DNA of 64,000 bases, from NCBI GenBank assembly GCA_964187785.1, contig OZ076409.1, forward strand, positions 56,484,001 to 56,548,000, in the 5' to 3' direction. Each line of letters starts with the position of its first letter. The stretch's first letter is position 1. The notes beneath the pieces are model-generated. The model saw only the letters and a program-made list of their open reading frames with translations. It was not told the DNA's origin and did not search any database. Shown here piece after piece: positions 1,850 to 35,836 of this stretch. Made by a program: the position numbers and the translations under genes. Origin of the DNA: Amphiscolops sp. MND2022. Taxonomy: Eukaryota.

Positions 1850-2200
1850 CTAATTGACAGTAGGAATGTAAGCTTTGTTTTTCTGATTTCAAAACTGCTT
1901 GAAATTCTGTTGACCACGACATTCTTCAGACGAACGTTTTCAGTATTGGAGTCCTGTGGAGAGCTGTTTAAAATGATTGAGATATATTTGAAGGACAGAA
2001 CTTTACAAGTAAGGGCAGGCGATTGTTCATCATCTCCGTGTGTAACAAATTGTTTGCCTCAAGGCCCCTTACTGGGACGGCCTCCGTTATTACTTTCGAT
2101 CAACGAGAATGTTCGTGAATTTATCACTTGTAACCGATGCTCGGATGTTGCCAAACCTTTTTCTATTCAATATTGTTCATCCCTAGTCGAGATTGCCTGA
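1850..2200 (+). pseudogene. Decayed non-LTR retrotransposon (CR1/L2/Jockey-like) reverse transcriptase fragment
   Basis: FSDFKTA*NSVDHDIL resembles DFSKAFDSVDHxIL, and IYLKDRTLQVRAGDCSSSPCVTNCLPQGPLLG resembles YLSDRTQxVR...SGVPQGSLLGP. Stops and frameshifts are present. Confidence 0.7.
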
Positions 2201-2310
2201 ACTTTTTACATACTGCATGGAAACATGCAGGCTAATTTTTTATAAAAACATGGAAAATTCCGGGACCGTGCATGGAAACATTTTGTAGGCTTACAATGCA
2301 GCCTTACCTA

Positions 2311-3601: not shown

Positions 3602-4989
3602 TATTTGAATTAAAACTGAAAACATTTCCACTTCTTCAGCAGCGGGATCACTTTGTTTTCACACGTAAGTTTCTCATGTAAGTACCTTATGTAATCCCCG
3701 TTAGCCAAATAGCACGCTGAATATGACGCTACTTTGAAACTTATAATGTGACTGAAATTTGTTTGCATTGAAAGCGCGGTAAATTTGATTAAGGTCTCAG
3801 CTGCTTTCAAAATTAGAACGGCGTCTTAATGAAACCTGCAAAACGTCGCGGCGCAGAATTGCCTCCAAATTTAAGATGCATTTTACAGGCAGCTTGATAA
3901 AATTAAAATGAATCAGTGAAGATTTAATGCATGGATATTGAAAATTAGCTTGGTAACCTACAAAAACATGTAAAAAGTTCAAGCAGTTCCAACCAGGGAT
4001 TGCTTTTGCAACAAGTCCAAAAGCATTGTCTTGTGGTTTTACGAGACTGTTTGAGTATGGCTGCTAGTAAATGCAAAAACCCATCACGTTGAAGTCATAT
4101 TACAATTTTGAGCCTTAGATATAGCGCTGACTTTGGCCGTTCTCGGCTTGTTTATTGTTGAGTACGCTATATGAGAAAACGGTCTTGTTTTCAAACTGGA
4201 AAGTTTCAAAAGCCGGAAACTAAAATTTTCGAACCAAATCATGCTCAGAATAGGGACTATTATGGTTCATTAAAAAATTGGTTCAGTCTAACAGTGTTTC
4301 AAAACATTTTGGTGACTTTGTTCAATTTGAATCATATTGAAAATTCGAGATTAACTAGATGGTAACTCCGGCTTAGTTCCGGGCTGTATATAAGGAATTT
4401 ATTAAATATGTCATCAATTGGGTATGGACGCATATTGATTCGAAATATACGTGTTTAACGAAAACGGTATTGTTATAGTTCAATTTGTTCAGGAAAAATT
4501 TGCTCGACACTAGTTAGATGCAATAATCCGCTTTGAAGAAATATGTGAAGAATAGACTCAAAAAAAGTCATGCACCTTCGGGTAGAAAATGATTTTTTTG
4601 TCTGGGACTAACAAAAACATGAAGAGAAGACCCTTGTGAGGGAATATTTTGGTACAAAGTTGCACATTGCCAAAAAATCAGAGTGGGGCACTTTGTCTCA
4701 GACAATCAGTTTTTCAAATATTGTAAAATCTGATAAAAAAGACAAAACACTTGGACATCCTTCCATGCACTTCAGATTTTAGACGAACTCGAACAGTGCT
4801 GAAAACACCCAAAGAAACCCCTTTTGGTGTTGTCTACTTCAGGAAACATTTTAAATAATTAGTGCAACGCGGAATTAAAACCCAGTCACCTTTTTGGCTC
4901 CCAGCCCTAGGCATCACTAGAAGTAAGAAGAAGTAAGTTAATAACCCCCAGTTCCGCTTTTTTAGGTCGGCGTTCTTTCGGAGTCTATC

Positions 4990-16425: not shown

Positions 16426-17270
16426 AACAAACCGGGAACGGCATAAGTTGGCGCCATACCTAAGGCTCAAAAATTGCACAAGGACTTCAAAGTGTCAAGT
16501 ATTCTCTTCTACAGTACCCGAAAAACCCAAAAGTTGGACCGAACTGGCGCGCCAAAAAGGGGACCCTTTCGGATTTTTTTAACATCCATTCTGTTGCAAA
16601 AATTCAAAACAAAATGAAGGGGACCCTATGGGAGACCAGTGAGTTGTCGTGTATCGAGTTTTTCGTCTATCGTGTATTTCATGTAGTTCGTGTCTTTGCA
16701 AAAACCGTGACGCGAATTCGTTTTTTTTTGAAAAAAATCGCGTATTTTCTTGTATAATCGTGTATATTCGTGTATCTTTTCAAAAAAAATAAAAAGAACT
16801 TCGAGGTTTTTTGGCGACATACAGTTTCTTCTATATGTGCATCGTATGTCACATTGAGAAAATAGCCTTTCGACTGCTCCAAGGGCTTGCTGGAATGTCT
16901 AAAATTCCAAGAATCAATTTTTTCCCAAACTCACGTGCACAATTCAATTATCGTGTAATTTCGTTTGTTTTTGTGTATCTAAGAAAATCGTGTATCGTGT
17001 AGATTCGTGTATTGAAGAAGCAAAAAATGGTGTATTCTGTCGTGTATCGTGTATCGTGTACAATTCACTGGTGGAGACATTAAAATTTTCCAAATAAAAT
17101 CTCAAAAGGCCGAAAAAACTGAAAGAGGGACACTTTAGTCTCGCCCGGTGTTGTATATTACGCTGGTAAAAAAAACAACGTTTTCGATTCAGTTCCCTTA
17201 GCCAAACGATTTAATTTGACACCTTAAAGATTCGTAGAACTTTGTAGAACTATTTTGTCAGCTCGGGTGG
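16426..17270 (-). mobile_element. Helentron-like family A copy interrupted by a hAT MITE
   Basis: Starts AACAAACCGGGAACGGCATAAGTTGGCGCCATACCTAAGGCTCAAAA. The family body resumes after 17078. The right boundary is approximate. Confidence 0.65.
16637..17070. mobile_element. hAT-type MITE with TCGTGTA repeats (copy 1)
   Basis: 11-bp TIRs CAGTGAGTTGT/ACAATTCACTG. The 8-bp flanks TGGGAGAC/GTGGAGAC form a degenerate TSD. Many internal TCGTGTA motifs. Confidence 0.75.
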
Positions 17271-17300
17271 TCTTTAGTCAGCGCTTTTCTAGAGTCAGTG

Positions 17301-17797
17301 TTTTTAGTCGGCGCCTTTTCCCTTAAGGAAAAAAGCCCGACTATTACGATGGGAGATTTTTTTCTTTTTCAGCCTACAATCTCACTCTGAATGGTCCACT
17401 TTTTTACAATCTTTTGTTCATTTGTTCAACTAATTTTCTGAGAAGCAGGAGATCGTGGGTTCGATTCTCGCACTTAACCACAAATTTGTTTATGCTTCCA
17501 AAAGTAGAGGCGAGACCAAAGGCCCCCCCCCTTTGGGATTTTTCGGCACTATGTGACTTTTTTCGAAAACTTTTGAATTCTATCAAAGGGTACCCCCTTG
17601 CATTTTTTTGGAGTTTTCGGTTTGTAAATACTTTTATTGAGACTAAAAGGCCTATTTTTGAGTTTTTTCGCATTGTGCCACTTTTTTTAGAAAAAAAAAC
17701 TTTTTTTGAAAAAAATTTCCCAAATGTTTCCAAAGTTGTTCCTTGAATATTTTTGAGCCTTAGATATGGCGCCCTTTTGGGACGTTCCCGTCTTGTT
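17301..17797 (+). mobile_element. Helentron-like family A copy; uninterrupted paralogue of the Gypsy insertion site
   Basis: TTTTTAGTCGGCGCC...hairpin...GGGACGTTCCCGTCTTGTT. It contains the empty site GGGTACCCCCTTGC at about 17588-17601. Confidence 0.8.
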
Positions 17798-18639
17798 TTT
17801 CCATACACCTGAAGTGATCAAAGAAGTTCTACAAAATTTTATGGTGTCAAATTGAACCATTTGACTTACCGAACTGAATCAAAAAGGTTTTTCCTTTTTT
17901 TCCGCGTAAGATACATTACCGGGCGAGGCTAAAGGGCCCTGTCAGTTTCTTGTCGGTATTGTGCAACTTTTGTTCAAACTTGTTTTTCACAAAAGGGTCC
18001 CCCTTCATTTTTTTTGGAATTTTGCGACAGAATGGATGTTGAAAAATCCCAAAAGGTCCCCCTTTCGGTTTGTTTTTCGGCATTGTGGAAGAGAATACTT
18101 TGACTTTGAAGTCTTTTTGCAATTTTTGAGCCTTAAATATGGCTCCGACTTGGGCCGGTCCCGGTTTGTTTAAAAAGAGTCACTAGTATAGTCGCGTTTC
18201 ACTTGATAAACTGAACTTAGTGCGTTTTTATCGTTTAATACGTTGTACCGCAAAATGGTGATATAAGTGTTCAAATTGAGAAAATACAAAAATTCGACTC
18301 TAGAGGCGAACCCCAAACTTTAATTGCCAATACGTAAAACAGTTTGGAGACAAGAACTAAAACGTTTGGGGTGTGACTTCATCCATTGTGTAAAACCGTA
18401 CTACTATATTTGAATTTGAATAGTTATAGGAACTCGATACAAGTTAGATGCAAACGCCGTTCCGGGGGGACTAATGCTGAAAAACAAAATTAAAAAAGTT
18501 ATTCCTTGACTTAAAAACTCAGAGAGAGTTCGTTTGAGCTGAAAAACTTTCTAAATGAAAATGATAAAAATCTTGAAAGGAAGGGGAATGCAGGAAAGCT
18601 TACGGAGGGAGACCAAATGAAGGGGACCCTATTGGAGAC

Positions 18640-19073
18640 CAGTGAGTTGTCGTGTATCGAGTTTTTCGTCTATCGTGTATTTCATGTAGTTCGTGTCTTT
18701 GCAAAAACCGTGACGCGAATTCGTTTTTTTTTGAAAAAAATCGCGTATTTTCTTGTATAATCGTGTATATTCGTGTATCTTTTCAAAAAAAATAAAAAGA
18801 ACTTCGAGGTTTTTTGGCGACATACAGTTTCTTCTATATGTGCATCGTATGTCACATTGAGAAAATAGCCTTTCGACTGCTCCAAGGGCTTGCTGGAATG
18901 TCTAAAATTCCAAGAATCAATTTTTTCCCAAACTCACGTGCACAATTCAATTATCGTGTAATTTCGTTTGTTTTTGTGTATCTAAAAAAATCGTGTATCG
19001 TGTAGATTCGTGTATTGAAGAAGCAAAAAATGGTGTATTCTGTCGTGTATCGTGTATCGTGTACAAATCACTG
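18640..19073. mobile_element. hAT-type MITE (copy 2, produced by the tandem duplication)
   Basis: Near-identical TIRs to copy 1, with flanks TTGGAGAC/GTGGAGAC. Confidence 0.75.
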
Positions 19074-19598
19074 GTGGAGACATTAAAATTTTCCAAATAA
19101 AATCTCAAAAGGCCGAAAAAACTGAAAGAGGGACACTTTAGTCTCGCCCGGTGTTGTATATTACGCTGGTAAAAAAAACAACGTTTTCGATTCAGTTCCC
19201 CTAGCCAAACGATTTAATTTGACACCTTAAAGATTCGTAGAACTTTGTAGAACTATTTTGTCAGCTCGGGTGGTCTTTAGTCAGCGCTTTTCTAGAGTCA
19301 GTGTTTTTAGTCGGCGCCTTTTCCCTTAAGGAAAAAAGCCCGACTATTACGATGGGAGTTTTTTTCTTTTTCAGCCTACAATCTCACTCTGAATGGTCCA
19401 CTTTTTTACAATCTTTTGTTCATTTGTTCAACTAATTTTCTGAGAAGCAGGAGATCGTGGGTTCGATTCTCGCACTTAACCACAAATTTGTTTATGCTTC
19501 CAAAAGTAGAGGCGAGACCAAAGGCCCCCCCCCTTTGGGATTTTTCGGCACTATGTGACTTTTTTCGAAAACTTTTGAATTCTATCAAAGGGTACCCC

Positions 19599-22109
19599 TG
19601 TTACGACATATTGTCGGGTCGTTTTGAGTAGAACTTATTCTTACTGATTTTGTTGGAGTATAGAAACTTCTAGTTTCTTCCTCTACCTCTTCTTCGGTAT
19701 TTTCTCTAATGATCCCTCTTGTTTCAGGTTTCAAGAGTTTTAACATCTCCTTCTGGGATTCGATAAGAAGATTCTTAATTTCCGAAGTTATTTCCTCTTT
19801 CAAAGAGGCTCTCAAACTTTCTAAGAGACTATTCTCAATCCGGGGGGATTTTGGATTGGAAGGTCCCGCTACCTCATCGTCCTGGTTCAAAGGACAAGAA
19901 TTTCCTACCACTATAGGTGAAATCAGGCCTTCACTTACGTTCTCACTGGTGCTTTGCTGATCATTTCTTCTTTTTTGGCTTCTCGTTGTAGACATTTTGT
20001 AGAAAAGTTTGGATTTGAAGAATTGAATTTCTTTCAAATATTTTCTGACAAAAGTAGAATAAGGTGAGAGTGAAATTGAGAATTCGACTGAATTATACAA
20101 TTACTAAGGACTGAGTCCCTCAATCATCAAATCCTATCATATTTATACCCTCTTAGCATCATTTGATCACGATCATAATCCCTAATTTCCTTCGAACAAT
20201 TAGTCATTTCCTGTTTTATCGATGAAAAAATCACGAAGTTCCCAAATTTGCGCTGACATTCCGTCAAATTTTAAGACACGGCAAACCTAATCTAGCATTA
20301 GTCATCAACCGTAATCATATTATTTCAGCTCGGCGTCCTTTTATTTCCTCCCAAGCAGGAAGTAGATATTACTTCAGTCTGTCAAACCGGAAATGATTCC
20401 CTGTTTTACTGCTTTGGTTCGCGGGAAATTGACGCTGAGATGACGCCGGCATGAACAACTAATGCCTGAATTTTGATATTTTGCTCGAGAAAAATGCTAT
20501 GACTAATGTTTTCAGCCCTATAATTTCCAATGATGCTAAAGAGGAAGGAGAAACAAGCTCAAAGAATTAGCAACAATCTCAAATTAGTTTCAAATTAAAT
20601 GATTAACGATTAACAAAATAAAGCAACGACACATTGGCGTTTGGTGGATTGATGGACTAGGTTGTCTGAATCAGACTTTTGTCCAAATTTATTAATACTT
20701 CACTTACAAATAGCGTCTAATATCATTTTAGCGCTTATTTGGTAAATATGCATAATACTCTGTCAACAGATTTTAACTTGTACATGAAATAGTAATCTTG
20801 AACAAAACATCTGACGGTATGAGGACGGCACTTCATGGAACCTCTGAACAGGCAAGAGTCCAAAACCTTCTAACATCAGATTCCATTCATTACAGAACGC
20901 ACAAATGTAATACAAACATTTACTCTTGATTCATCCACGTTAGGGTTAGAATAATGCACATTCTGATTAGGGGGTGACGACGTACCGACGTCCAATTAAA
21001 CAACAAGGTTGTAGCACACACTTTATGCAGTACAAAAGTACAAATGTATGAAAATATATTTCCAATATGAAAATATCATCGAATTACTTTCGTCATGCCC
21101 ATAAACTGTGACTTTCACCTACATTATACTGGGACTTCCATTTCAACTTAAATTTTGGAGTAAAATTTATCCGACAAAGGAAATATTTGACGAAAACGTG
21201 GCATGGGACTCCAAATTCCCTTTTAATTATTTTGTTGGAACACCAAGTACTTTAAACGTATTCCTAGCCCTAATTCAATTTGATTGATATTCATCATAAC
21301 TTCTGGGTGGATTAAAACAACTCGTCTTGATGGAATTTGGACGTACCGTGGACGTACGTATTAGTATTAGGCCTGGTCCAACATAGTGGACGTAACGCGG
21401 ACGTAAATTTGAAGTAGAATTAGTCCTCGCCGAGAAGGCAATGCCGTGACGTCACTATGGCGGAAAATTGGAATGATTTCAAGTAGTGTATCTAATATAG
21501 GCGGTAAATTGGAATGGTTCTCTAGTGAGCGTGGACGAAACGGTGACGTCACGCTGTATACTTTCAAGTCTGCTTCTTACCGACATCTAATATACATGTA
21601 TCCTTTATTTTGTTTACTTAACGCAGTACCGACGTCCTAATCCGCACTAATTGCTGTTCAAAGTGCAATTAAGCTGCCTTTCTTAGAAAAGGAGTGGATA
21701 TCTCAGTGTGTCATCTCAATGTAGTTTCTATTTTAGATTCAGATAATGTCCTTTTTTCAACGGTGGTTTTGGGTATATTTCTATTTAGATCGGTCTATGG
21801 TCTTTATTTCATTGCGAGTTTTAATTTAGTTTTCAGGTGGCGAATGTTTCTATTTTGGCGTACTAAGGACGTCCTACCGGATGTGCGTGAAATCATCTTA
21901 TTTCAATTTTAATTTCATTTCTCATTTTTGTTTAAACTTTTCGTGAGTTGGGCGTTCGTTTTCGTATTCTTAGTCACAGTTTATTCTAAGGATAAGGTTT
22001 TAAAGTTACCAGTTGAAGTAAGATCTGGGGAATCTCAGATTGCCTCCGTGACCTCTCCCGATCTTCAGTCGTCTGCAACCACAAGCCAGACCGGGAGCGG
22101 GCTGTGACA
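19599..22109 (-). repeat. 3' LTR (2511 bp)
   Basis: TGTTACGAC...CTGTGACA. Matches 33326-35836 at constant offset 13727; no differences were noticed by eye. Confidence 0.96.
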
Positions 22110-22704
22110 GGGCCGCTCCTGTAGGAAGATTGACTTTGCCCGGGGCTCTGAGTTGCGAGGCAATTGTCAGAGTAGTGGTGACTGGCTGTACTCTCTTCTC
22201 CAAATCGTTCAAAGGACTTGGCTGCAAGAAGTTTATCATCCTTGGCGTTCCCGGCGGGGTGTTGAAGTAAGAAGAGGCGTCTTCCTGGTGCACTTTTTCG
22301 AGATATTCTGCTACTTTACTGCTCGTTGTCGATTCTTTATCGTCTGCCGAGGGTTCAACAACAAATATATCAGATGACAAACTTTCGTCAGGGCTCTCTG
22401 GAGAGTCGGCCATTACTTCTTCTTCGGGACTTTCCGATTGTGGGTATTGACCTGATTCCACAGTTTCAAAGCTCGTGCTGAGTTTCATCCTTTTGCATTC
22501 AGCTTCCAGAGAGTCCAGAGAGAGGTCGAGGAATTCTTCCTCATCTGCAGTAGCTTCCGCAGACGAATTCATTATTTCAACAATTATTCTAGGGTATTCT
22601 TTGTTGACTCTAGGTAGTGGTGTAGAAGCCCTCGTGATCTCACCCTCTTCTTCACTTGACGACGAGATGTCAATCAATTCGTAAATATCCAGTAGATTAT
22701 TCAT
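22006..22704 (-). CDS. Accessory ORF of the Gypsy element, 232 aa, acidic/Ser-rich, likely disordered, with SIM-like motifs
   Basis: ATG-initiated open frame with motifs LIDISSSSEEE, IIVEI, EEEFLDLSLD and DIFVVE. It crosses the LTR boundary and ends 104 nt inside the 3' LTR. Confidence 0.65.
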   Translation of the reverse strand: MNNLLDIYELIDISSSSEEEGEITRASTPLPRVNKEYPRIIVEIMNSSAEATADEEEFLDLSLDSLEAECKRMKLSTSFETVESGQYPQSESPEEEVMADSPESPDESLSSDIFVVEPSADDKESTTSSKVAEYLEKVHQEDASSYFNTPPGTPRMINFLQPSPLNDLEKRVQPVTTTLTIASQLRAPGKVNLPTGAALSQPAPGLACGCRRLKIGRGHGGNLRFPRSYFNW

Positions 22705-23195
22705 TTTCTTTGCGAGGTTTCTTTCTTTTGCAGCTGTCGCTTGTATTTAATTGTTCCACAATGAATTTGGGATTAATTAGGATTAAGGAGAATATTGGGA
22801 TAAATCCCTCCATTCTGATTGGTTAAACAATCGTTTTAATCCTTTTTAATCTTCAGGTGTTGACGCTGTGCCGGCGTCGTTTTTTATTGGCTGCGAATTG
22901 AATTAATCCGCTTGGCCAAGTTTGTCAACGTTATGCTGACGTCAATTTCGTTAGCTTAGCTAACTTTTGTTTTGTCACCGTTATGATGACGTCATTGTAG
23001 ATTATAGGATTAATTTTCCAACCCTCATAACCTTTTTGTCGACGTTATGCCGACGTCATTTTCGTCGATATTTCAATCGATCTATAGTGCCGACGTTATG
23101 CCGGCGTCAGTTTCGTTGGTGAATAGCCAACTTTTAGGTTTTGTCACCGTTATGATGACGTCATTTTTGGGCTTATTTTCAGATTGTCCTTTGTG
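22705..23195. promoter_or_regulatory. Putative bidirectional internal promoter with repeated GTTATG(C/A)(T/C)GACGTCA motifs
   Basis: Five to six copies about 50-65 bp apart (near 22866, 22930, 22980, 23045, 23095, 23149), three containing a perfect TGACGTCA. Lies between two divergent ATGs (22704 minus, 23196 plus). Confidence 0.55.
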
Positions 23196-26100
23196 ATGAC
23201 TTCTCCCCATCGAGTGGATCCTGGTGTGCAGAGTGGCAACGAGACGCAGTATGTGTTCTCAGAGGGGGACGTGTATCCGAGCGATGCTGATAATGTTGGT
23301 TTGGCAGGTGAGTTTGTCATTCCTTGGTCCATTAAGCTGTTGCGGATAATACTTTGCATAGATAGGCCTTTTCCATGCCCGTATTTCCACCGCTTAGATT
23401 TTCTGACGCGTCAAGACAACAGGAATGTGTGTTTTTAGTTCCTGCTACGACTGTTGTCGTCCCTTCGCCGGTTGTCCCACCTGAGGAACATGCTGTTGCG
23501 AGTGCTACTGTCCCTGCGAGTCCTGTGCCACCCGTTGAAGTTCCTGCGGTTGCCTTTGTTGTTTCTGAACCTCCTGCTCCTACTCCTGGAGTTACTGATG
23601 TCATCGTTCCTTTGATTGAGGTTGCCGATGTAACTGTTGGTGCTGCTGCCTCCTTGACTTGTGCCCCAACTCCTTCCCAACAAGACGACTCAGATGTGCC
23701 ACTTTCGTCTTTTCTTACGAAGTCAAAGAATACTGGGTTGTCTTCTCCTCGCGTAGGTGAGGACGTCTGCCCCCCGGCGAAGAAGAAAGGAGAATTGGTT
23801 GAGAAGACTGTTGCGGAAGAGGGAGCTGTCAAGAGTGCCATAGCTTCTCCCAATTTCTCTCGGTATCTGCCTGATTTTGCTGCTACTTTCGGTAGAATAG
23901 AATCGCCTTCGCCAGCAGCCCAAGGTGAGTTGTCTTTAGTTTGTTTTCTCTTTATATGATTGGGGGTTTGTGAAATTGGGTACGATGTCATTGGTTTGCT
24001 TTATTATTGTATGTGGGATTCGTCTGTTATTATAGTTGCACCTCCTACTCCAATTGTGTCATCTGGGAAACGACGTCGTACCGTCACTTTGGCGACTGTT
24101 GCGCAGTCACAGACCTTCCAGATCGAGAGTAGCGGGGGTGAAGAATCGCAGGCAGGGATCGCTGCCTATACTTCCCAGCAAGCTGCTTTGTTTGGTGAGG
24201 CAGTCGCTTCAGAATTGGAGACTCGGACTGTGGAGCCCTTCGTAACTAGTGAGTGAGATTTTCCTTTTGCTCTCTTTCTTCTTCCTCTCTTTTTTTTTTT
24301 TTTTTTTTTGAATTAGCTGTGTCATAGCATACGGTCGGGAAGTTTTGGGTGGTTTACCTGGTAGTGGTGAGTTGTTGAAGTTGATTGTTGTTGTTTTTGT
24401 TGTAGAGTTTGAAGAGTTAGTGACACGAGTAGAGGCAAGTCTCGAGAATGTGAGTCCGGCACGACGACGACCACCACGTCCCCAAAATGTGCGGAATCGT
24501 TTGCGTCGCAGTATGGTCAAAGATCACCCGATTTTTGAATTGTTTGTGACTGGATCGAGTTCCGGGGTTGAGACCGCTTTCTTCTGTACCCTCTGTCAAC
24601 GGGACGTCTCAATCGCGACCAAGGGCGTCCGTGAGATTAGTCGGCATTTTTCGAGTGACAAGCATTGGTTGTTGGATGCTACTTACCGTGTCCATCAAGG
24701 CTTGCAAGTTTATAACAAACTGCTTGATCCCATGGAGCTAAGTGACGCGCAGACGAAGGAGTATCTGTCTCGGCCATTTAAGGAGAAGCCTGAAGGTTTC
24801 AGCTTTCCGGAGGATCTCTTGCCTGCGTGCACCCGGGCTGATTCGAGTGTTCCCATCATGACGATGATCAACTGTCTTGTGGAGCTGCTTCGTAGTGGAG
24901 GTGACTATCTGTTGTTGAGGAAGTTGTGGGGCCATTTTCGCGCTACCCTTGGTACAGAGAACCCACTATACAATATGACTTGGAGTCGAGGAGAGTCTTT
25001 GGTGAGTTTCTGGCTAACGTTTCTGTGACGACTGTTGTTTTTCTGGTTTTCTTTCTTCCCCCATTTTCTTTGAATTCGTGGTATCTGTACTTAATCGTTC
25101 CTATTGTGTTTGGTAGTCGTTGCTGTGTCAGGGTCTGTTCCCTCGTGTTCTTCGTGCCCTGATTGCTCGGATTGGTGATTTCAAGAGCTACAGTGTCATC
25201 TTCACGGATCTGGGCAGTGAAAAACAGTGTCTTGTACGGACGTGGGAGAAGCATGTGATGCTGGAAGTGTGCATCGATGTACAGTCGGCGGGTCAGCGTG
25301 TTCCCCTCGCTGAGTTGAATTCCTTGTCTTGCATCCTGGGGAGCGTTCCTGGCGGACAACTGCCGATATCTGTGGAGGGTGTGAGTCCTTCGCTGCTGCG
25401 AGTGTTGAGCGACGTCCGCGAGGATGGTTGCCAGTTCATCCTCAGTCGCAATTTCACCGACGAAACCTTCCTCAGTTGTTATCGCCAGGCCCATCAGGAA
25501 GTGTTGGGCATGATGGAAGTCACCGCCATGGTCGACTATCTGATGCTGCGTTTGAGGGGTGCTTTGCGAGAACCGTGGCTGGAAGATACTGTCGTGCTCC
25601 GTCGTTGTGTTGTCGCTGGCCAAGTGTCTTTCCATGATCTCCGAGAAGTTGCCTCTGAACTGATTCCTGTGTGGAACTCTGTGAGGGAGTTCGTCCGTTA
25701 CACTGGGCCCCGTCACATTAAAAGCGAAACTGACATGGTTAGTAGTCCTGGTTTAATGGGTCTGCTTACTTGTTTGTGTGGTAATTTTCCTCTGTTTTCC
25801 TTTTTCGGTTTTCCCTTTTTTGAGCAATTGGGGTTTTATTGGCGCGAGAGTACACTGCTGTTGTTATGTTTTAGATGAGAGGCACTGACAGTCAGATTTA
25901 TTGTGATAATACAAATCGGCTGCGACTGGGGCTCCTTGTACATATGCTTGATCTTTGTAAGTGGACGTCGTTTCATCGTCGTACTTTGAGGTTGATGGTT
26001 AGTACATGGGTTTGTTGTTTAGATCGATGTACGTTCAAGAAGCAGCTATCTGGTCGTGAAGACTATGGTTTCCACTGTTACATGGAAATCTGCCAGTTTA

Positions 26101-27221
26101 TATACTGTTTGCTGTCTCGTACTCGCCTGCTTTCTGGGTTGCCTGATCTTCACGACTGGGAGGCTTACATGGATGTATCAAAAGTCGAGACATTCAAGAA
26201 GGTAGACACCGCTGATTTCCTGCTAAACCACAGTTTCGGAGAAGAATTGCAACGAGGCAAGACCGGTGAGATGCAGGAGTTCCGTAATCGTTGCCGGGAA
26301 TTTATGGACCGTCTGGTGGACGTACTGCTGGGGTCTAACCTTGTTGCGTCAGATTTCCTGCAGGGTGTTTATGCTTTCTGTCCCGAACTCCTGCTTGAAG
26401 GCGATGATCGTTACATCTTCCGCCTATTCAGTAAGTTGGTGCGAGTCTTGGAACGGAGCGGAGCTCTGAGCAGTGAGGAGGCTAAATCCGGCTCTGAAGA
26501 ATTTGTGACTTTTGTTGTGGACGCGCGACGCCGGCATACTGATGCTGAGAGGAGTGCTGAAGATATTGTGGATGTTGTGAGTTTTCTTCTAAATGATTAC
26601 AGTTTCTTGGCACGGAAGGATTTGTGCCGTATCCTGAAGTTGTGTTGCCTGGTCATGCGTCGTCCTGCCCCCGGTGGCCCTGAAGTGAGAGTCTCCCTAG
26701 ATGGTTGTGTCGTGCCCGCAGGAGTTGTTGCTTCCTGTCTGCGTGGAGTACAGAGTTATGTTCGAGGTCCTGATTTTAAACTGGGGTCCTTCTTTACCCA
26801 GCACACCATGGACTGTGTTCGTGATGCTCTTTCTGGTGCCCGAGATTTTATGACTGCTTCTTCAGATTTTGACCCCTGGAGGCGTATCTGTCTACTTGAT
26901 CGCGATGAGTTTGTTCGTCATTACAGCGAGTTGTTCGAGGCGCACATAAAGCGCAAGAAGGATGAGTCTTACCAACGATTCCGGACTGCTAATCAGCGTG
27001 TGCGTAGGAGTGCCACTGATGTCAACGTGTTTGCTGCGTCGTCTGGTGGTCGTTCCGGACGGGGGAGCTCGTCTGTTGCTGGAAGTGCTGCACTTAAAAC
27101 ACCGACTAAACGACCTGCTGTCCCGGCATCAAAAGAGTCCAAGAAGAATGAGTCGTCCGTCAAGAATAAGAAAAAATCCAAGAAACAGTCAGGCGACGCT
27201 TCTAGTTCGAAGAAGTGTTGA
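23196..27221 (+). CDS. Spliced antisense cargo gene of the Gypsy element, about 1115 aa; Pro/Val/Ala-rich N-terminus, C2H2/BED-like zinc finger, hAT-transposase-like C-terminal region, basic tail
   Basis: Predicted exons: 23196-23307, 23439-23924, 24036-24248, 24328-24366, 24406-25001, 25117-25737, 25875-25956, 26023-27221 (3348 nt). All introns are GT(G/T/A)AGT...TAG with matching phases (1,1,1,1,0,0,1). The motif CTLC-x16-H-x5-H lies at 24585-24665. The 39-nt and 66-nt introns are in frame and less certain. Confidence 0.82.
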
Positions 27222-27357
27222 ATTTGTTGAATTGAACTTTGTTTGATTGTTTGTGTGTTTTTATTGATTTTGTATAAGTATTCAGTTGTAGTATTATTAT
27301 GGAGTCATAGTAAAAGAAAAAGTTTGAAAGACTGTAGTAAGTCTAGAATTGAAATTG

Positions 27358-30300
27358 TCAGATCGGTTCGGTCTGGACTCCCGATGATACTTTTTGGTCT
27401 TCCATCATCGTAGTTATAGCGTCAAGTCGTCTGAAGTCAGGCTTAGCTTTAGGTTTAGGGTTGGGTCGCAAGTTGTACTTTGCTATTTTCCTCGGATTAT
27501 ACCCGACAGTTGTAGGCGGAGATATCGGGGGAATAGGCGGGCTTTCTGTGGGAGGGGGGCGACGTATGTATGGGTTATCCCCCACATCTGTTGTAAGGTT
27601 TGAAAAATCCGGAGACGGCGGCGCTGCGACGTCTGTATTTGCCATTTCTTGTATTTCTACGTTATGGTTGTTTCTTGTGTTTTCCGGCGATTCGTGTTCA
27701 TCAATCTGCTTTCCAAAATCCATTTCCCATGATACCGCATACCATTCATTGTGTGAGACTTTAACTTCTGGGTCAGGAAGGTAATCATTGGCTCGTACTG
27801 TGACGTCGGGCAAGCGTTGTTCCGTCACATAAGGTCGTATGCGAATTCTGTGTAGTGTTTGTGTATATCTTGTGCCAAGTTTTCGTATTGTGTAGTTGTT
27901 GTTCGAAAGCACTTTGATCACTACATACGGTCCTGTCCAGATGCAATCTTGAAACGCAAACTTTGTCGATTGATTGTCGGCTTTCGGGTTAAGTATGTAG
28001 CAGTAGTCATTGATTTTTAAGGGAGCTGCAGTCGCTTTGCGGTCGTAGTATTTTTTGTATTTGAGATAGGACAGCATGATGTTGTCTTTCGCCGTCGCCC
28101 TCACTTCGTCTATTTGTTTTTGGAGTTGTTCTGCTATATCCGAGTGGGGGGTGGTCTTCCACTTTGGCTTGATGCCTAATTTTAAATCGAGAACGTTGTA
28201 AGGTATACGTCCATGAAATACTGTAGATGGTTCGCAGCCCAGAGTTTCATGGTATGTTGTATTGTAATTCATTACTGCGATTTGGACATATTTGTGCCAC
28301 ATTGAGCGTCGTTCACCCGTTGATATTTTTAGGGCAGTTTTGATTGAAGCGTGCGTTCTTTCCAGAATTCCGATTGTTTGTGCATGCTTCGTAGATGCGT
28401 GGCTGATTTGAATTTCGAGTATTTGGGCTATTTCTGTGACGACTTCTGATCGAAATTGTGAGCCCTTGTCTGATAGGATTAGTGTTGGCAAGTATGCATG
28501 TCTTGTCATAACGTCGACAATGCATCGTCCGATTGTTTTCGCTGTGACATTCTGCGTTGGATATGCAAATAGATAACGCGAAAAGACATCAATCATCGTG
28601 ACAATGTTTTGGTATCCCGCAGAGTTTGGTAAATTCGGCAATATGTCTATTTCTAGGATATCTTCTGGTCCTAAGACATGTTCCGTATTGTTGATCATTT
28701 TTGGTCGGATTTGGCTGTTGTTGATTCGTTTGTATTTGATGCATTCTTCACATTGCATTACCCACTGTCTAATCTTCTTTGCTAATCCTGGGTAGTAGTA
28801 TTTTGATCGGCATTCTTGTATCATTTTTGTGATTCCTGGATGCTTCCCCATTTGTCCATGAATTGCTTTCAAGAGTTCTGTGATTAAATGTTCGGGGATT
28901 AGAATTTGATGGTGAGTGACTTGACCACATTCCCCGTAATATTTGCGCATTAGTACTCCATCTTTTACTATTAGTCTGTTTTCGTGGATTAGGAGGCGCT
29001 TGGCAGTCGGATCAGTCTGCAGAAGGTGTTTGTCGTATTCTTCACATATCAACTTCTTTTTGATTGCTTTGAAAACCAAATTCGAGTCTTGCTCGACTCT
29101 AATACGTGCATCTTCCTTTATTGCCCCAAAGGTATAAGATGCCTTGTTTATTGGGATTGGTGTGGTTTCTTTGATGGCTATTTTGATTTTTGTCGTCTCC
29201 TCGTCGCGTGCATTTTGTCTAGCTTGTTCTTTCTGCAGTAGAATTTCTTCTTCCGTTTCAATTGTTTCATCTGGGAGGAAGAAAAGTTGTTCCTCGTCTG
29301 CGACGTCCGTTGATTGGAGATTCACTTGAATGGGCTTGATAGTAATATCCTCTCTGATTTTTAGTTCAACTCTTTCTTTGGGATTGAGATCTATTCTTGA
29401 CAAAAAATCGGCTGCCGTGTTTTGCGTACCCGCGACGTGCATTATGTGGAAGTTGAATTGTAGTACGTAATCACATGCATTCCACAGAGTGGGCGGGATT
29501 GCTTTTGTTTGGAAGAAGCGGGTTACCGATCTGTTGTCGGTCATCACGAGGGTTGGTAGGGTTGTTTCCCATAGAATATGGCTGTATTCAAGGAAGGCGT
29601 GATAGATCGCTAGGAATTCCTTGCAGTAAATTGACATTTTGATTTGAGCCGGGGAGAACACCTTTGATCCGAATGCGACTGGTGCAAATGTCTTCTTTTT
29701 CGAATTGAGTTTTTTGTCGTTGTCTTCCTCAATCATTAGGGCGTAGCCAGAGGCTCGGAAGCTGGCGTCCGTCATTAGGACGTACTGTCGTCCCGTGATT
29801 GGCTGTTTGAGTGCTAAGCCGCAAGCTTGTGCCAATGCTGCGTTAATAGCTTTGTAATGGTCAAGTAGTTCTTCTGTGACCTTGATTTGTTTGTCTGCTT
29901 TCAGTAGTTCATAGAACCCGAGCAATTTCTCAGACAATCTCGGGATGTAGTTGCGATAATAATTGACGAAACCGATGTATCTTTGTACTTGTTTCTTGGA
30001 TTTTGGAAATCTCACGTTTGCTAGGAATTTTTGAATTTTATGGTCTTGCGGGGCGATTCCTTGTGGTGTGATCGTTCTTCCAAGAAATTCGACCTCGGTT
30101 ACTCCGAAATGGCATTTTTCGATGGTTAATTTGAGTCCTGCCCTTCTGATGCATTCAAAAACTGCTCGAATGTTGCGTATCAGTTGCGCCACGGAATTGG
30201 CCGCTATCCCGATATCGTCCACGTACTGTGCGCATTGATCAGCTTTGATTACTTTATCTAAGTATTCTCGCATGAAGCTTGAAAATGCCGACAGGGCTCT

Positions 30301-32292
30301 GCTCAATCCTTGTGCCAGACGTTTGTATGCGAACGTTCTGCTTGCAAAGTTGAAGGCTAGCATTTCGATTGATCTTTGGTCTGCCATCTGTAGGCAATGA
30401 TATGCCTGTGAGCAGTCTAGTTTGCAAAACAATTTTTTCCCAGCTAGATGTTGGGCTGCATCTGACAGGGTGCTGACTGGGTGGTTATTGTTGATGTAAT
30501 CGTCTGAGATTAATGCGTTTATTTTCCGCAGGTCGACAAGTAGACGCAGTTTGCCATTTGGTTTCCTCTGTGCGAAAATTGGGCTTGCATACTTTGAAAA
30601 TGGTAGGGTCGTTATTATGCCGTACCTGTGCATTAGCGCCAATTCGACTGTTAGGTCTTCTTTCAAATTGATTGGTACCGGCAAGCTTTGCGTGTAAATA
30701 GGACGGTCGTCTTTCGGAGTTAATTTGACTTTGAAGCTATTGTTGATTCCGATGTCAAGGCGATGGCGAGCAAAGATGTCATTGTATTCGACTATTGTTT
30801 GCTCAAGTTGTTGTCTGTCATTACCTTCGATTTGGGATCCTTCCCACTGGAACATGTCAAGGAATTTTTGTCTTGATTCTGGGTCTTTGGTTGGATCCAA
30901 GTTTTCCTTTTGGATGAGTTCACGGATTTCCTTCAAGATCCGACGTTGGATTGGCGTATGTTCTTCTTCGTTCCCTGGGTTCTCGGGTGTGGGGAACCAG
31001 AGGTTTTCATCGTTTTGTTCGTGTTCATTTGATTTCATAAGTTCGTTAATGTACATGTGTGTGTCATCGGGGTCTTCTAACAATTTGAGTGCGGCGGCGT
31101 CAACTGGTCGGATTTGTTTCGTGTCCTCAGGTTTGAGGATTTGTAGTTCTGCCAGTTTTGTGTGGTTCTTTATTGTATGTGGGAAATCCGTTAGATTGGC
31201 GATTCTGATGTTGAGCCTTTTGTTATGGGCTGTCGCCAGAGCTGGTGCAACAATGATTGTTGCTGTTTCATCGAATTGTGGTAGTGGTTGTACCGCACCA
31301 GTGACGTCATGCATGTTTGTGGTTATTACTATTGCGTTCACTGTTGTTGTTTGTTGGGGCGGTAGTGTTTGGTTTCCTTCTGCCATTATTTGGAGCGGTT
31401 TCGGGTTGCATTTTTTCATCTCGTCCGTCATGGCTAGCGTCATTTCGACGTGCGGGAAATTGATGGTTCCGTTGGCAGTGTCGATTACTGCTTGGTGATT
31501 TCTCATGAAGTTCAGTCCTATGATGGGGAATGACGTTTTCGATAGGATGACGAAGGTATCCGTGAAGGTATATGTTCCGATATTGAACTGGATGTCTGCT
31601 GTTGCTATTGGTTGTTCTAGTTGTGCGTTTGCGCATTCAATCTTGAAGGGAGGTTGAGGGTATTCTTTTATGACACAACTATCACTGTTCATTTTGATTG
31701 CGTTGTAGTCTGACCAGGACATGGCATTGATGAACGCACCTGAGTCGACAAGTCCGTCCATTGTTATTTCGCCGAATTCTAGTGGTAAGTACAGCATTCT
31801 CCTTCTGCTCTTGAGGACTATAGTGGAGTGGAGGGGTATATATGCTTCTCCATCCTTTTCGGCTACGTATTCCTTGATTGAGTTAAGTGACATTGGAAAA
31901 TTGTCTGGGGGTAGAAGTGTTTTGGTGGAGTCGTGGTTAACTCCTTCGTTTTGTTGTGACGCTGGGCGGTCGTCGGAGGCGCTTTCATTTTGTTCTACCT
32001 GGTTTGTAGCAGAGAATTCTCTATTGATGGGGGGTAAGCTGGTGGGACGATTTGCTTGTTGTTTAGGATTGTCCCTGTAGTCTTTGTCGTGAGTGTAGGT
32101 TTCTGCTGGTTCAGTTTGTGGATAGGGTCTTTTTATAGAAGCAAGTGCTTGTCGTCTTAGCCGATCTACCGTTGGTGTGTCGTTACACCCTTCTGTTGAG
32201 TCGTTTGTATAGGTGATGGGGGGATCTGTTGATGAGTACGCCCTCGCGGCTACGGTTTCCCCGAATCGCAGGCGCGGCGTATCTAGTTTTTT
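27358..32292 (-). CDS. pol: Gypsy Pol polyprotein (protease, RT, RNase H, integrase), probably translated as Gag-Pol by -1 frameshift
   Basis: Motifs LVDSGA (PR), YVDD (RT), LMTDAS (RH), H-x5-H...CEEC plus EIDIL/SDKGSQF/ILERTH (IN). The frame is open from the slippery site at 32286-32292 through the first Met (31893) to the stop at 27358. Confidence 0.96.
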   Translation of the reverse strand, partial: KKLDTPRLRFGETVAARAYSSTDPPITYTNDSTEGCNDTPTVDRLRRQALASIKRPYPQTEPAETYTHDKDYRDNPKQQANRPTSLPPINREFSATNQVEQNESASDDRPASQQNEGVNHDSTKTLLPPDNFPMSLNSIKEYVAEKDGEAYIPLHSTIVLKSRRRMLYLPLEFGEITMDGLVDSGAFINAMSWSDYNAIKMNSDSCVIKEYPQPPFKIECANAQLEQPIATADIQFNIGTYTFTDTFVILSKTSFPIIGLNFMRNHQAVIDTANGTINFPHVEMTLAMTDEMKKCNPKPLQIMAEGNQTLPPQQTTTVNAIVITTNMHDVTGAVQPLPQFDETATIIVAPALATAHNKRLNIRIANLTDFPHTIKNHTKLAELQILKPEDTKQIRPVDAAALKLLEDPDDTHMYINELMKSNEHEQNDENLWFPTPENPGNEEEHTPIQRRILKEIRELIQKENLDPTKDPESRQKFLDMFQWEGSQIEGNDRQQLEQTIVEYNDIFARHRLDIGINNSFKVKLTPKDDRPIYTQSLPVPINLKEDLTVELALMHRYGIITTLPFSKYASPIFAQRKPNGKLRLLVDLRKINALISDDYINNNHPVSTLSDAAQHLAGKKLFCKLDCSQAYHCLQMADQRSIEMLAFNFASRTFAYKRLAQGLSRALSAFSSFMREYLDKVIKADQCAQYVDDIGIAANSVAQLIRNIRAVFECIRRAGLKLTIEKCHFGVTEVEFLGRTITPQGIAPQDHKIQKFLANVRFPKSKKQVQRYIGFVNYYRNYIPRLSEKLLGFYELLKADKQIKVTEELLDHYKAINAALAQACGLALKQPITGRQYVLMTDASFRASGYALMIEEDNDKKLNSKKKTFAPVAFGSKVFSPAQIKMSIYCKEFLAIYHAFLEYSHILWETTLPTLVMTDNRSVTRFFQTKAIPPTLWNACDYVLQFNFHIMHVAGTQNTAADFLSRIDLNPKERVELKIREDITIKPIQVNLQSTDVADEEQLFFLPDETIETEEEILLQKEQARQNARDEETTKIKIAIKETTPIPINKASYTFGAIKEDARIRVEQDSNLVFKAIKKKLICEEYDKHLLQTDPTAKRLLIHENRLIVKDGVLMRKYYGECGQVTHHQILIPEHLITELLKAIHGQMGKHPGITKMIQECRSKYYYPGLAKKIRQWVMQCEECIKYKRINNSQIRPKMINNTEHVLGPEDILEIDILPNLPNSAGYQNIVTMIDVFSRYLFAYPTQNVTAKTIGRCIVDVMTRHAYLPTLILSDKGSQFRSEVVTEIAQILEIQISHASTKHAQTIGILERTHASIKTALKISTGERRSMWHKYVQIAVMNYNTTYHETLGCEPSTVFHGRIPYNVLDLKLGIKPKWKTTPHSDIAEQLQKQIDEVRATAKDNIMLSYLKYKKYYDRKATAAPLKINDYCYILNPKADNQSTKFAFQDCIWTGPYVVIKVLSNNNYTIRKLGTRYTQTLHRIRIRPYVTEQRLPDVTVRANDYLPDPEVKVSHNEWYAVSWEMDFGKQIDEHESPENTRNNHNVEIQEMANTDVAAPPSPDFSNLTTDVGDNPYIRRPPPTESPPIPPISPPTTVGYNPRKIAKYNLRPNPKPKAKPDFRRLDAITTMMEDQKVSSGVQTEPI
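32230..32292 (-). promoter_or_regulatory. Programmed -1 ribosomal frameshift signal
   Basis: A_AAA_AAC heptamer immediately before the gag TAG, followed by the GC-rich stem TACGCC-GCG-CCTGCG...CGTAG-CCGCG-A-GGGCGTA. pol is in the -1 frame relative to gag. Confidence 0.85.
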
Positions 32293-33722
32293 GATTCATC
32301 TGCGTCTTGGTTTGTCAGCTGTTGTGCAGAGTTATCTTGTTTCCTTTCTTGTTGGTGATGTCGTTTAGGTCTCGGGTCGTTTGCCGAGTTAGCTCCGTTC
32401 CAACAGTTTTCTGTTTTGTGGGGTTTTCCACAGGTATCGCATTTAAGTGGTTTTCCTGAGCTGTTGCCGGTTTGGCCATTGTTTTTCTTGGTTTGCATCC
32501 ATTTATCTCTTTTCATTTTCCTACACTCCGCTTTGTAGTGTCCAAATTTGTTGCAGTAGAAACAATACCCTTTCTTGGTGTTTTGCGTTCTGTTGTCGGC
32601 TTGTTTGGACTCGGTGTTTGGTGGGGCCGGTTCTACTTTGTTTAGTGGTACCAGGTTTACTTCATCTGGCGCCCCAAGGCCGTTAAGTCTCATTTCCCTT
32701 TCTAGATGGAGTACGATGTCATTATAGGGTTTGTCTTCAAGGTACGCTCTATTTAATATTTTCTTTACATGGTCTGGCATTTTTGCATAGATCGCCTTAT
32801 CAATAAATTGTTGGGCTTCAGAGCCAAAAGCTTCTTTGGCTGTTTTTTGCAGTACATCTAGAAATTCGTGGAGTTTTTGGTTCGAGGGATCGAATTTGAG
32901 CGCATCCCATTCGCACCTGGCTTTGGCCATAGACAGGTAGTCTCCGAAACGTCGTTTAAAAATTGTCATTATTTCATCCAGGGAGTCCTTTTTTGTGTCT
33001 TCAATATTGCAGAACGCCTGTAGGGCGTCCCCTCGGAGCAGTGAGTGGAAATAGTTTATTTTTTGGATTTCCGTGAGGTGTGGGTACATCTTGATGTTAT
33101 TACGAAAGAGGTCTTCGAAGAGCTCGAATTTTTCCGATTTGCCGTCGAAGGTTGGGAGTGATGCCGTTAATGCTTTTGGCATCGGGAATGGGGTGCTATC
33201 GTTTTTGTCTGTTGCAAATAAGGTCCTTGCTACTATTGGACGCTCTTTCGACGCCGGTTGGCTTTGAGACCGGGCTTTCGCTCTTTTTGGCTGATTTGTG
33301 GAGTCGGTTAGGACTCCTGTCACCATGTTACGACATATTGTCGGGTCGTTTTGAGTAGAACTTATTCTTACTGATTTTGTTGGAGTATAGAAACTTCTAG
33401 TTTCTTCCTCTACCTCTTCTTCGGTATTTTCTCTAATGATCCCTCTTGTTTCAGGTTTCAAGAGTTTTAACATCTCCTTCTGGGATTCGATAAGAAGATT
33501 CTTAATTTCCGAAGTTATTTCCTCTTTCAAAGAGGCTCTCAAACTTTCTAAGAGACTATTCTCAATCCGGGGGGATTTTGGATTGGAAGGTCCCGCTACC
33601 TCATCGTCCTGGTTCAAAGGACAAGAATTTCCTACCACTATAGGTGAAATCAGGCCTTCACTTACGTTCTCACTGGTGCTTTGCTGATCATTTCTTCTTT
33701 TTTGGCTTCTCGTTGTAGACAT
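32283..33722 (-). CDS. gag: Gypsy Gag with two CCHC zinc knuckles
   Basis: Capsid-like LPTFDGKSEKFELFEDLF...KINYFHSLLRGDAL and knuckles CFYCNKFGHYKAEC and CDTCGKPHKTENC. The first ATG (MSTTRSQ, 33722) lies inside the LTR; an alternative ATG sits at the LTR/PBS junction (33326). Confidence 0.92.
   Translation of the reverse strand: MSTTRSQKRRNDQQSTSENVSEGLISPIVVGNSCPLNQDDEVAGPSNPKSPRIENSLLESLRASLKEEITSEIKNLLIESQKEMLKLLKPETRGIIRENTEEEVEEETRSFYTPTKSVRISSTQNDPTICRNMVTGVLTDSTNQPKRAKARSQSQPASKERPIVARTLFATDKNDSTPFPMPKALTASLPTFDGKSEKFELFEDLFRNNIKMYPHLTEIQKINYFHSLLRGDALQAFCNIEDTKKDSLDEIMTIFKRRFGDYLSMAKARCEWDALKFDPSNQKLHEFLDVLQKTAKEAFGSEAQQFIDKAIYAKMPDHVKKILNRAYLEDKPYNDIVLHLEREMRLNGLGAPDEVNLVPLNKVEPAPPNTESKQADNRTQNTKKGYCFYCNKFGHYKAECRKMKRDKWMQTKKNNGQTGNSSGKPLKCDTCGKPHKTENCWNGANSANDPRPKRHHQQERKQDNSAQQLTNQDADESKN
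33311..33325 (-). other. Primer-binding site (PBS)
   Basis: TGGTGACAGGAGTCC directly follows the 5' LTR end (...TAACA|TGG) and is complementary to a tRNA ending ...CCTGTCACCA. The tRNA identity was not assigned. Confidence 0.75.
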
Positions 33723-35836
33723 TTTGTAGAAAAGTTTGGATTTGAAGAATTGAATTTCTTTCAAATATTTTCTGACAAAAGTAGAATAAGGTGAGAGTGA
33801 AATTGAGAATTCGACTGAATTATACAATTACTAAGGACTGAGTCCCTCAATCATCAAATCCTATCATATTTATACCCTCTTAGCATCATTTGATCACGAT
33901 CATAATCCCTAATTTCCTTCGAACAATTAGTCATTTCCTGTTTTATCGATGAAAAAATCACGAAGTTCCCAAATTTGCGCTGACATTCCGTCAAATTTTA
34001 AGACACGGCAAACCTAATCTAGCATTAGTCATCAACCGTAATCATATTATTTCAGCTCGGCGTCCTTTTATTTCCTCCCAAGCAGGAAGTAGATATTACT
34101 TCAGTCTGTCAAACCGGAAATGATTCCCTGTTTTACTGCTTTGGTTCGCGGGAAATTGACGCTGAGATGACGCCGGCATGAACAACTAATGCCTGAATTT
34201 TGATATTTTGCTCGAGAAAAATGCTATGACTAATGTTTTCAGCCCTATAATTTCCAATGATGCTAAAGAGGAAGGAGAAACAAGCTCAAAGAATTAGCAA
34301 CAATCTCAAATTAGTTTCAAATTAAATGATTAACGATTAACAAAATAAAGCAACGACACATTGGCGTTTGGTGGATTGATGGACTAGGTTGTCTGAATCA
34401 GACTTTTGTCCAAATTTATTAATACTTCACTTACAAATAGCGTCTAATATCATTTTAGCGCTTATTTGGTAAATATGCATAATACTCTGTCAACAGATTT
34501 TAACTTGTACATGAAATAGTAATCTTGAACAAAACATCTGACGGTATGAGGACGGCACTTCATGGAACCTCTGAACAGGCAAGAGTCCAAAACCTTCTAA
34601 CATCAGATTCCATTCATTACAGAACGCACAAATGTAATACAAACATTTACTCTTGATTCATCCACGTTAGGGTTAGAATAATGCACATTCTGATTAGGGG
34701 GTGACGACGTACCGACGTCCAATTAAACAACAAGGTTGTAGCACACACTTTATGCAGTACAAAAGTACAAATGTATGAAAATATATTTCCAATATGAAAA
34801 TATCATCGAATTACTTTCGTCATGCCCATAAACTGTGACTTTCACCTACATTATACTGGGACTTCCATTTCAACTTAAATTTTGGAGTAAAATTTATCCG
34901 ACAAAGGAAATATTTGACGAAAACGTGGCATGGGACTCCAAATTCCCTTTTAATTATTTTGTTGGAACACCAAGTACTTTAAACGTATTCCTAGCCCTAA
35001 TTCAATTTGATTGATATTCATCATAACTTCTGGGTGGATTAAAACAACTCGTCTTGATGGAATTTGGACGTACCGTGGACGTACGTATTAGTATTAGGCC
35101 TGGTCCAACATAGTGGACGTAACGCGGACGTAAATTTGAAGTAGAATTAGTCCTCGCCGAGAAGGCAATGCCGTGACGTCACTATGGCGGAAAATTGGAA
35201 TGATTTCAAGTAGTGTATCTAATATAGGCGGTAAATTGGAATGGTTCTCTAGTGAGCGTGGACGAAACGGTGACGTCACGCTGTATACTTTCAAGTCTGC
35301 TTCTTACCGACATCTAATATACATGTATCCTTTATTTTGTTTACTTAACGCAGTACCGACGTCCTAATCCGCACTAATTGCTGTTCAAAGTGCAATTAAG
35401 CTGCCTTTCTTAGAAAAGGAGTGGATATCTCAGTGTGTCATCTCAATGTAGTTTCTATTTTAGATTCAGATAATGTCCTTTTTTCAACGGTGGTTTTGGG
35501 TATATTTCTATTTAGATCGGTCTATGGTCTTTATTTCATTGCGAGTTTTAATTTAGTTTTCAGGTGGCGAATGTTTCTATTTTGGCGTACTAAGGACGTC
35601 CTACCGGATGTGCGTGAAATCATCTTATTTCAATTTTAATTTCATTTCTCATTTTTGTTTAAACTTTTCGTGAGTTGGGCGTTCGTTTTCGTATTCTTAG
35701 TCACAGTTTATTCTAAGGATAAGGTTTTAAAGTTACCAGTTGAAGTAAGATCTGGGGAATCTCAGATTGCCTCCGTGACCTCTCCCGATCTTCAGTCGTC
35801 TGCAACCACAAGCCAGACCGGGAGCGGGCTGTGACA
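33326..35836 (-). repeat. 5' LTR (2511 bp)
   Basis: Direct repeat of 19599-22109, adjacent to the PBS and gag. Confidence 0.96.

Follow-up and report, generated by a model that had tools for sequence, protein, structure and literature searches.

Organization of the Retrotransposon and Its Predicted Antisense Gene

The analyzed window, a 64-kb stretch of contig OZ076409.1 from Amphiscolops sp. MND2022 (positions are counted from its first nucleotide), contains a Ty3/gypsy long terminal repeat (LTR) retrotransposon on the minus strand, spanning 19599-35836. Enclosed in this element is a predicted additional gene, here referred to as the cargo gene (23196-27221, plus strand; seven exons, 1102 codons, 3309 nt). 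It is oriented antisense to gag-pol, lies between pol and the 3' LTR and encodes a protein that appears to be related to the transposases of hAT DNA transposons. The Pfam domains of the element itself follow the gypsy order: gag, then protease, reverse transcriptase, RNase H and integrase. The two LTRs are identical, the target site ACCCC is duplicated, and both gag and pol are intact; hence, the insertion is very recent, and the retrotransposon, as far as its sequence tells, is young and intact. All features are collected in Table 1.

Table 1. Features of the Ty3/gypsy element and of its cargo gene (window positions).
Feature	Position	Strand	Basis or remark
3' LTR	19599..22109	-	2511 bp, TG..CA ends; 0 mismatches vs. 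33326-35836
5' LTR	33326..35836	-	2511 bp, identical to 3' LTR
Target-site duplication, 5 bp, ACCCC	19594..19598 (left copy), 35837-35841 (right copy)	.	
gag, 479 aa, CCHC knuckle, start within 5' LTR	32283..33722	-	open reading frame list and Pfam
pol frame: protease, reverse transcriptase, RNase H, integrase	27358..32295	-	1645 open codons, -1 frame, overlaps gag end
Primer-binding site, begins TGG, within gag frame	33311..33325	-	adjoins 5' LTR
232-aa acidic, Ser-rich open reading frame, gag-pol sense	22006..22704	-	extends into 3' LTR
~15-bp motif (CGTTATG..GACGTCA type), six dispersed copies at intervals of ~50-65 bp	22864..23165	+	candidate binding sites
Cargo exon 1, predicted start ATG	23196..23307	+	GTGAGT donor and phase fit; splice signals alone
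Cargo exon 2, Pro/Val/Ser/Glu-rich low complexity	23439..23924	+	splice signals alone
Cargo exon 3	24036..24248	+	splice signals alone
Cargo exon 4, with the zinc finger (24585-24665), then helices that correspond to the hAT stretch separating finger and catalytic core	24406..25001	+	
Cargo exon 5, degenerate RNase-H-like core	25117..25737	+	weak similarity
Cargo exon 6	25875..25956	+	relatives P0026 and P0048 lack the 66-nt intron before exon 7
Cargo exon 7, helical region, Val at catalytic Glu position (within 26622-26696), Lys-rich tail	26023..27221	+	

The six introns of the cargo gene are all of the GT..AG type and 66-157 nt long, their phases are compatible, and no exon has an internal stop. 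The initial annotation had given the range 24406-27221, which covers exons 4 to 7; the predicted gene is longer and starts at 23196. The motifs on which that annotation relied were all recovered: the zinc finger CTLCQRDVSIATKGVREISRHFSSDKH (C-x2-C-x16-H-x5-H) at 24585-24665, the C-terminal helical motifs QEFRNRCREFMDRLV at 26274-26318 and, beginning with LCRILKLCCLVMRRP, at 26622-26696, and the Lys-rich tail at 27132-27185. They do not form one open reading frame (ORF), being spread over separate exons and different frames. The predicted order of exons 4 to 7 is confirmed by intron-less relatives, above all P0214, a single ORF of 890 aa that aligns with exons 4, 5 and 7 in order (34, 31 and 22% identity). 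The similarity to relatives ends at the GT donors: after exon 4, a Val (GTn) follows in 24 out of 30 relatives, and four of the 30 read through without an intron; after exon 5, a Val follows in 29/30. Intron content varies among the relatives P0026, P0048, P0189, P0208, P0214 and P0271, some of which lack the exon-4 or the exon-6 intron. For an antisense gene of a retroelement, losing or gaining introns is in itself unusual.

Relatives were numerous. Exon 4 matched 267 representatives at E ≤ 0.001 (150 of these listed), exon 5 matched 57 clusters, and the last exon matched 81 clusters, which comprise 782 member sequences and range from 38 to 100% identity; the motifs therefore exceed what chance would give. 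At least ten members are present in 20 of the 81 last-exon clusters, and many members are truncated. The zinc ligands C, C, H and H are kept in 49 of the 77 aligned relatives that cover all four columns. Longer homologues of the last exon were not found among 8000 candidates, and no related loci turned up in contigs from metagenomes and viruses. Among the exon-4 relatives, P0219, P0251 and P0255 are the most distant, and they are located on contigs of 1-5 kb; in the search with the hAT hidden Markov model (HMM) described below, they rank eighth, third and first, respectively, and they may be closer to the donor.

Probable Kinship with hAT Transposases

To obtain references, metagenome contigs were scanned for a hAT end motif, which retrieved 109 loci; the five longest open frames among them all passed the cut-off of PF05699. 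Two of the references, L030 and L049, carry a finger with exactly the spacing of the cargo finger. Conversely, a profile of the cargo finger found hAT-like sequences in 16 of its 17 best listed segments (some of them duplicate copies), of 1607 segments searched, 219 of which are hAT-like. With the hAT HMM, 53 of 288 cargo-family proteins were matched at E ≤ 0.01, compared to none of 288 reversed decoys, and the 30 best listed matches all lie in or around the finger.

When a 292-row cargo profile is compared by hhalign with a 244-row hAT profile, the two match colinearly along 626 columns (P 9e-5), with a probability of 59 in local and 81 in global mode. Most of this significance comes from the finger, which alone reaches a probability of 88 (P 3e-6). 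Once the finger is removed, the best local patches still lie at colinear places (hAT 159-224 and 529-609). In a custom end-to-end profile alignment without the finger, none of 100 shuffles did better in any of six settings (z 5.3-6.7). Tested on its own, the C-terminal helical part was matched by 0/100 shuffles (z 3.7-6.0), and the helices following the finger gave z values of 4.2-6.8 against fine shuffles and of 1.4-1.5 when blocks of 30 columns were shuffled. Among single real proteins, three hAT transposases rank 1-3 of 14, with scores of 27-42, and the eleven unrelated proteins score at most 9. Atlas matches of exon 4 include DUF4371/FAM200/ZBED-type clusters at 0.81-0.85, which are leads only.

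Several results speak against this kinship or limit it. No Pfam hAT domain (PF05699, DUF4371), for which the initial annotation had proposed a search, reached the cut-off in the exons or their relatives; the best Pfam match is zf-BED (PF02892), with an E value of 0.013 in one of 56 relatives. With the finger left out, local hhalign falls short of significance (P 0.068), as does the exon-5 span (P 0.58), and for the exon 6-7 core (P 0.04), one shuffle scored higher. The RNase H core by itself reaches z values of only 0.4-2.7 in the end-to-end alignment, and the Atlas matches of the last exon are unrelated proteins. Furthermore, the limits of the regions were chosen after the first cargo/hAT alignment had been seen, and all hAT references come from one subgroup, picked by its ERxFS motif. 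Global hhalign without realignment shrank to seven columns, with shuffles as high or higher in 21/25 and 25/25 cases.

Structure prediction, which the initial annotation had proposed as a check, yielded no match: the AlphaFold models of two fragments have predicted local distance difference test (pLDDT) values of 51.7 and 56.3, too poor to count either way. Foldseek with these two low-confidence models gave no match at E ≤ 0.001, and VIA listed no transposase for them (best Z 4.2 and 5.5). The model with a pLDDT of 52 contains one helix and three consecutive strands. Searches of PDB sequences with P0214 and with three further queries (A1, A2 and A4) returned nothing credible, and self-pairing of P0214 185-275, predicted without an alignment, yielded no answer, with a score of 0.00.

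Of the parts of the protein, the zinc finger gives the strongest support for hAT kinship; that from the helical regions is moderate, and that from the RNase H core is weak. A possible explanation would be that a hAT element contributed only the finger and the following helices, the remainder being an unrelated helical protein; the local comparison without the finger, the weak RNase H core and the unrelated Atlas matches of the last exon are what such a chimera would produce. However, the C-terminal helical part beats all shuffles by itself, and the best local patches outside the finger are colinear with hAT transposases. A chimeric origin is, hence, considered quite unlikely, and the cargo protein is, with high probability, a derivative of a full-length hAT transposase.

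Probable Loss of the Catalytic Residues and of the Transposon Ends

In exon 5, YSVIFTD (25189) is aligned with the first catalytic Asp motif of hAT transposases, and ISVEGVS (25366) with the second. In the first Asp column, none of 50 relatives has Asp (Thr in the window); in the second, none of 59 does (Glu in the window; Glu, Arg, Gln and others in the family). The reference set, on the contrary, has Asp in 35/36 and 36/36 sequences at these two columns. At the catalytic Glu, counted without gaps from a conserved Pro, no Glu occurs among 79 relatives, which have Val (66), Ile (12) or Met (1); the 91/91 Glu of the hAT references is by construction, as they were retrieved by ERxFS. In agreement with the initial annotation, ER.FS is absent from all 82 last-exon proteins examined (the 81 matches, including that of the window itself, and P0214).

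For the two Asp sites, the register is less certain than for the Glu. The column that follows the first Asp position holds Asp or Glu in 42 of 49 relatives, and a shift by one residue is possible there. However, alternation between Asp and Glu in this column is unlike a catalytic site.

The ends of a hAT element are missing as well. The flanks of the cargo gene share no inverted match (11 nt, at most one mismatch), no terminal inverted repeat is present among 25 of the 26 repeat pairs, and hAT-type ends, i.e., terminal inverted repeats with an 8-bp target duplication, were not found around the gene. As the DDE (Asp-Asp-Glu) positions are lost and no terminal inverted repeat is present, the cargo gene is no autonomous hAT element. 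The protein itself is very probably dead as a catalyst, to judge from these columns. The original proposal of a dead hAT-type transposase is thereby supported, within the limits given above, by the profile comparison with retrieved hATs together with the loss of the DDE residues.

Nested insertions are common, and the cargo gene could be a dead hAT copy that became nested in this line of retrotransposons and travels with it to no advantage. That many relatives are broken and that barely two-thirds keep all four zinc ligands would be expected of such a passenger. However, the 1102 codons are open with all six splice pairs intact, no inverted repeats flank the gene, and a quarter of the last-exon clusters have ten members or more. 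Moreover, the catalytic Glu has been replaced in every one of the 79 relatives, whereas many other columns are near-invariant, which points to selection after the loss of catalysis. We give the passenger explanation only a slight chance.

Comparison with Known Systems

The hAT subgroup closest to hand (L030, L049 and L045, with the end LPHSNAxxERxFS) shares with the cargo protein the spacing and sequence of the finger, the order and spacing of the regions past the finger, and a helix-Pro motif before the Glu site. The cargo protein differs from it in having no DDE, no in-register CxxH or RW motif and no terminal inverted repeats. Its gene is interrupted by six introns and travels within an LTR retrotransposon, and a low-complexity N-terminus is added. 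The cargo protein is, hence, not a member of the active hAT elements, for which Hermes is the solved prototype. Hermes binds subterminal repeats through its finger, and transposases that have been tamed usually retain the ability to bind DNA and lose that of catalysis (PMC10368747).

Antisense genes in the same position have been described in plant Ty3/gypsy elements (gene23 of Grande, RIRE2, the TRP28 proteins of Retand) and in the fungal Boty; like the cargo gene, they lie between pol and the 3' LTR, and a nuclear or regulatory role has been proposed for them, as it is here for the cargo protein (PMC7264820, PMC11963269). By position, the cargo gene is an aORF-3R, an antisense ORF between pol and the 3' LTR. 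The origin of the antisense extra ORFs of LTR elements is unknown; they lack similarity to transposable elements, so an origin by nesting is unsupported, and a look at spliced antisense transcripts has been called for (PMC7264820). In contrast to the plant and fungal ORFs, the cargo gene can be assigned to a donor superfamily and retains almost the entire transposase. The word "intron" does not occur in the Retand paper (PMC11963269).

A second parallel is found in hAT genes tamed by their hosts, such as DAYSLEEPER and the ZBED family, which kept the finger and the scaffold and lost DDE, terminal inverted repeats and target-site duplication (PMC8616336, PMC10368747). By analogy, the cargo protein may work like a factor of this type. 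The owner, however, is another transposon instead of the host, with hundreds of copies. VANC21, an accessory protein with which the transposon VANDAL21 counteracts its own silencing (PMC8616336), and the plant mobile domain proteins borne by transposons serve as functional models, without any claim of sequence kinship; VANDAL is a DNA transposon, unlike the LTR carrier of the cargo gene.

In the literature searched, which includes few subscription papers and some only as excerpts, no LTR retrotransposon with a dead hAT transposase is reported. No precedent appears in the available parts of PMC5408684 (where the words "transposase" and "intron" are absent), PMC6431247, PMC12477816, PMC9911081 and PMC5499845.

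Putative Function of the Cargo Protein

That the cargo protein stayed conserved once catalysis was lost points to a function. The matches of the last exon and of exon 5, and ten others that were looked up, are ENA records that come without genomic setting, which is the main reservation to any claim about the carrier family. They could, in principle, represent a mostly free-standing host gene family tamed from hAT, in the manner of ZBED, from which the element acquired one copy; host genes derived from hAT and lacking DDE do exist (DAYSLEEPER; PMC8616336). On the other hand, a single exon with 782 members in 81 clusters, many of them truncated, suggests transposon spread, and the exon-5 cluster P0092, with four members 99% identical, has the same look. 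A host family is deemed highly improbable, and the cargo gene is probably a standing part of the LTR family.

The window offers candidate targets for the finger. All six CGTTATG..GACGTCA-type copies of the 64 kb are located directly upstream of the cargo ATG, in a region covered by the repeat families D1/D2. The pentamer GACGT reaches a density of 20/kb in the spacer and 6/kb in the LTR, compared to 0.9/kb in the flanks. Two points reduce the weight of these motifs: GACGT is also found at 3.5-3.8/kb in cargo and pol, compared to 6/kb in the LTR, and TGACGTCA is a classic host basic leucine zipper (bZIP) site. The repeats could equally be host bZIP sites or remnants of the former hAT end.

The preferred course of events is as follows. 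The starting point would be a hAT element, or a gene that the host had previously obtained from one, captured at the DNA level in reverse orientation. The cargo introns would then survive rounds of reverse transcription because the gene is antisense to the genomic RNA and out of the reach of splicing; an antisense gene with introns would have had to enter at the DNA level or as an unspliced antisense stretch. Transcription would start from a promoter of its own, in the spacer or in the 3' LTR. The Lys-rich tail would bring the protein into the nucleus, where the finger, modeled on hAT fingers at subterminal repeats, would bind short repeated motifs, with the six copies 5' of the ATG and the GACGT cluster in the LTR as candidate targets. 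The added low-complexity N-terminus of ~270 aa would recruit host factors and raise or unsilence transcription of the element.

Alternatively, the dead transposase could bind the LTR ends of the cDNA, or host target DNA, and help the integration complex to enter the nucleus or to choose its target. This is the main rival to a regulatory role. The conservation of the whole transposase scaffold, beyond the finger, down to 22-34% identity is in line with it, as are the Lys-rich tail and the position of the insertion within one copy of a repeat family of which the window has many. The candidate repeats, however, are found 5' of the cargo ATG and inside the LTR instead of at the LTR tips, and a single insertion site is known; a role in integration is, accordingly, held to be unlikely.

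Adoption as a DNA-binding regulator, as we infer it, fits the anatomy. The reading favored here, with moderate confidence, is that of an intact Ty3/gypsy element whose antisense dead hAT derivative acts as a nuclear DNA-binding regulator of its own carrier. That this regulation is transcriptional is a tentative proposal. Equally tentative, and short of an even chance, is the wider scenario in which an entire old Ty3/gypsy radiation turned a full-length hAT transposase into an accessory gene, antisense and with introns, whose disarmed product would activate the element or keep it from being silenced by sequence-specific binding to the repeats of its own LTR and spacer. It is likely that one kind of jumping gene has tamed another.

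The antisense extra genes of LTR retrotransposons are a stated open problem (PMC7264820), for which the cargo gene would provide a nameable donor. The loss of catalysis can be traced across dozens of diverged relatives, and the six repeats beside the cargo start form a testable target. If the function is true, retrotransposons can domesticate DNA transposases as hosts do; this would be a domestication of one transposon by another across the class I/class II divide, with a traced origin for antisense extra ORFs. Such genes escape Pfam and ORF-level annotation and may, therefore, be common and have been missed.

Further Features of the Element and the Window

A tandem duplication of ~2 kb with near-identical units (16609-19598 plus 35837-36859) contains the element in one unit and, in the other, adjacent one, an empty copy of the target site near 17592. 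The gag gene starts ~400 nt inside the 5' LTR (33326-33722; 19599-19995 in the 3' LTR copy). Each LTR therefore encodes 133 gag codons, and the primer-binding site falls within the gag frame; the 3' LTR copy of these codons is visible as an ORF at 19585-19995. The -1 overlap of gag and pol comprises 13 nt (32283-32295, minus strand), at an A-run just 5' of the gag stop, which is a likely frameshift site. The 232-aa ORF has no match in Pfam and crosses the position of the polypurine tract, which is short and atypical. No tRNA genes were found in the 64-kb window.

Elsewhere in the window, a tandem array with a 21-bp period is located at 50648-51277 and a ~2.73-kb tandem duplication of 98-99% identity at 57949-63449. 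An abundant dispersed repeat family, with internal inverted arms and copies in both orientations (4106, 13719, 16418, 17751, 18124, 35997, 40037, 45188, 47957, 58228 and 60962), is probably a non-autonomous element.

Among the reference sequences, L049 encodes (260-2959, minus strand) a hAT transposase whose N-terminus carries an OTU protease domain (PF02338, E 3.5e-14). The hAT end motif has no match in the viral contigs and three in the genome contigs, one of which (L001) is a hAT-like fragment. This C-terminal fragment (3305-4099, minus strand) lies in the record of a gammaproteobacterial metagenome-assembled genome and is likely due to host contamination or transfer.

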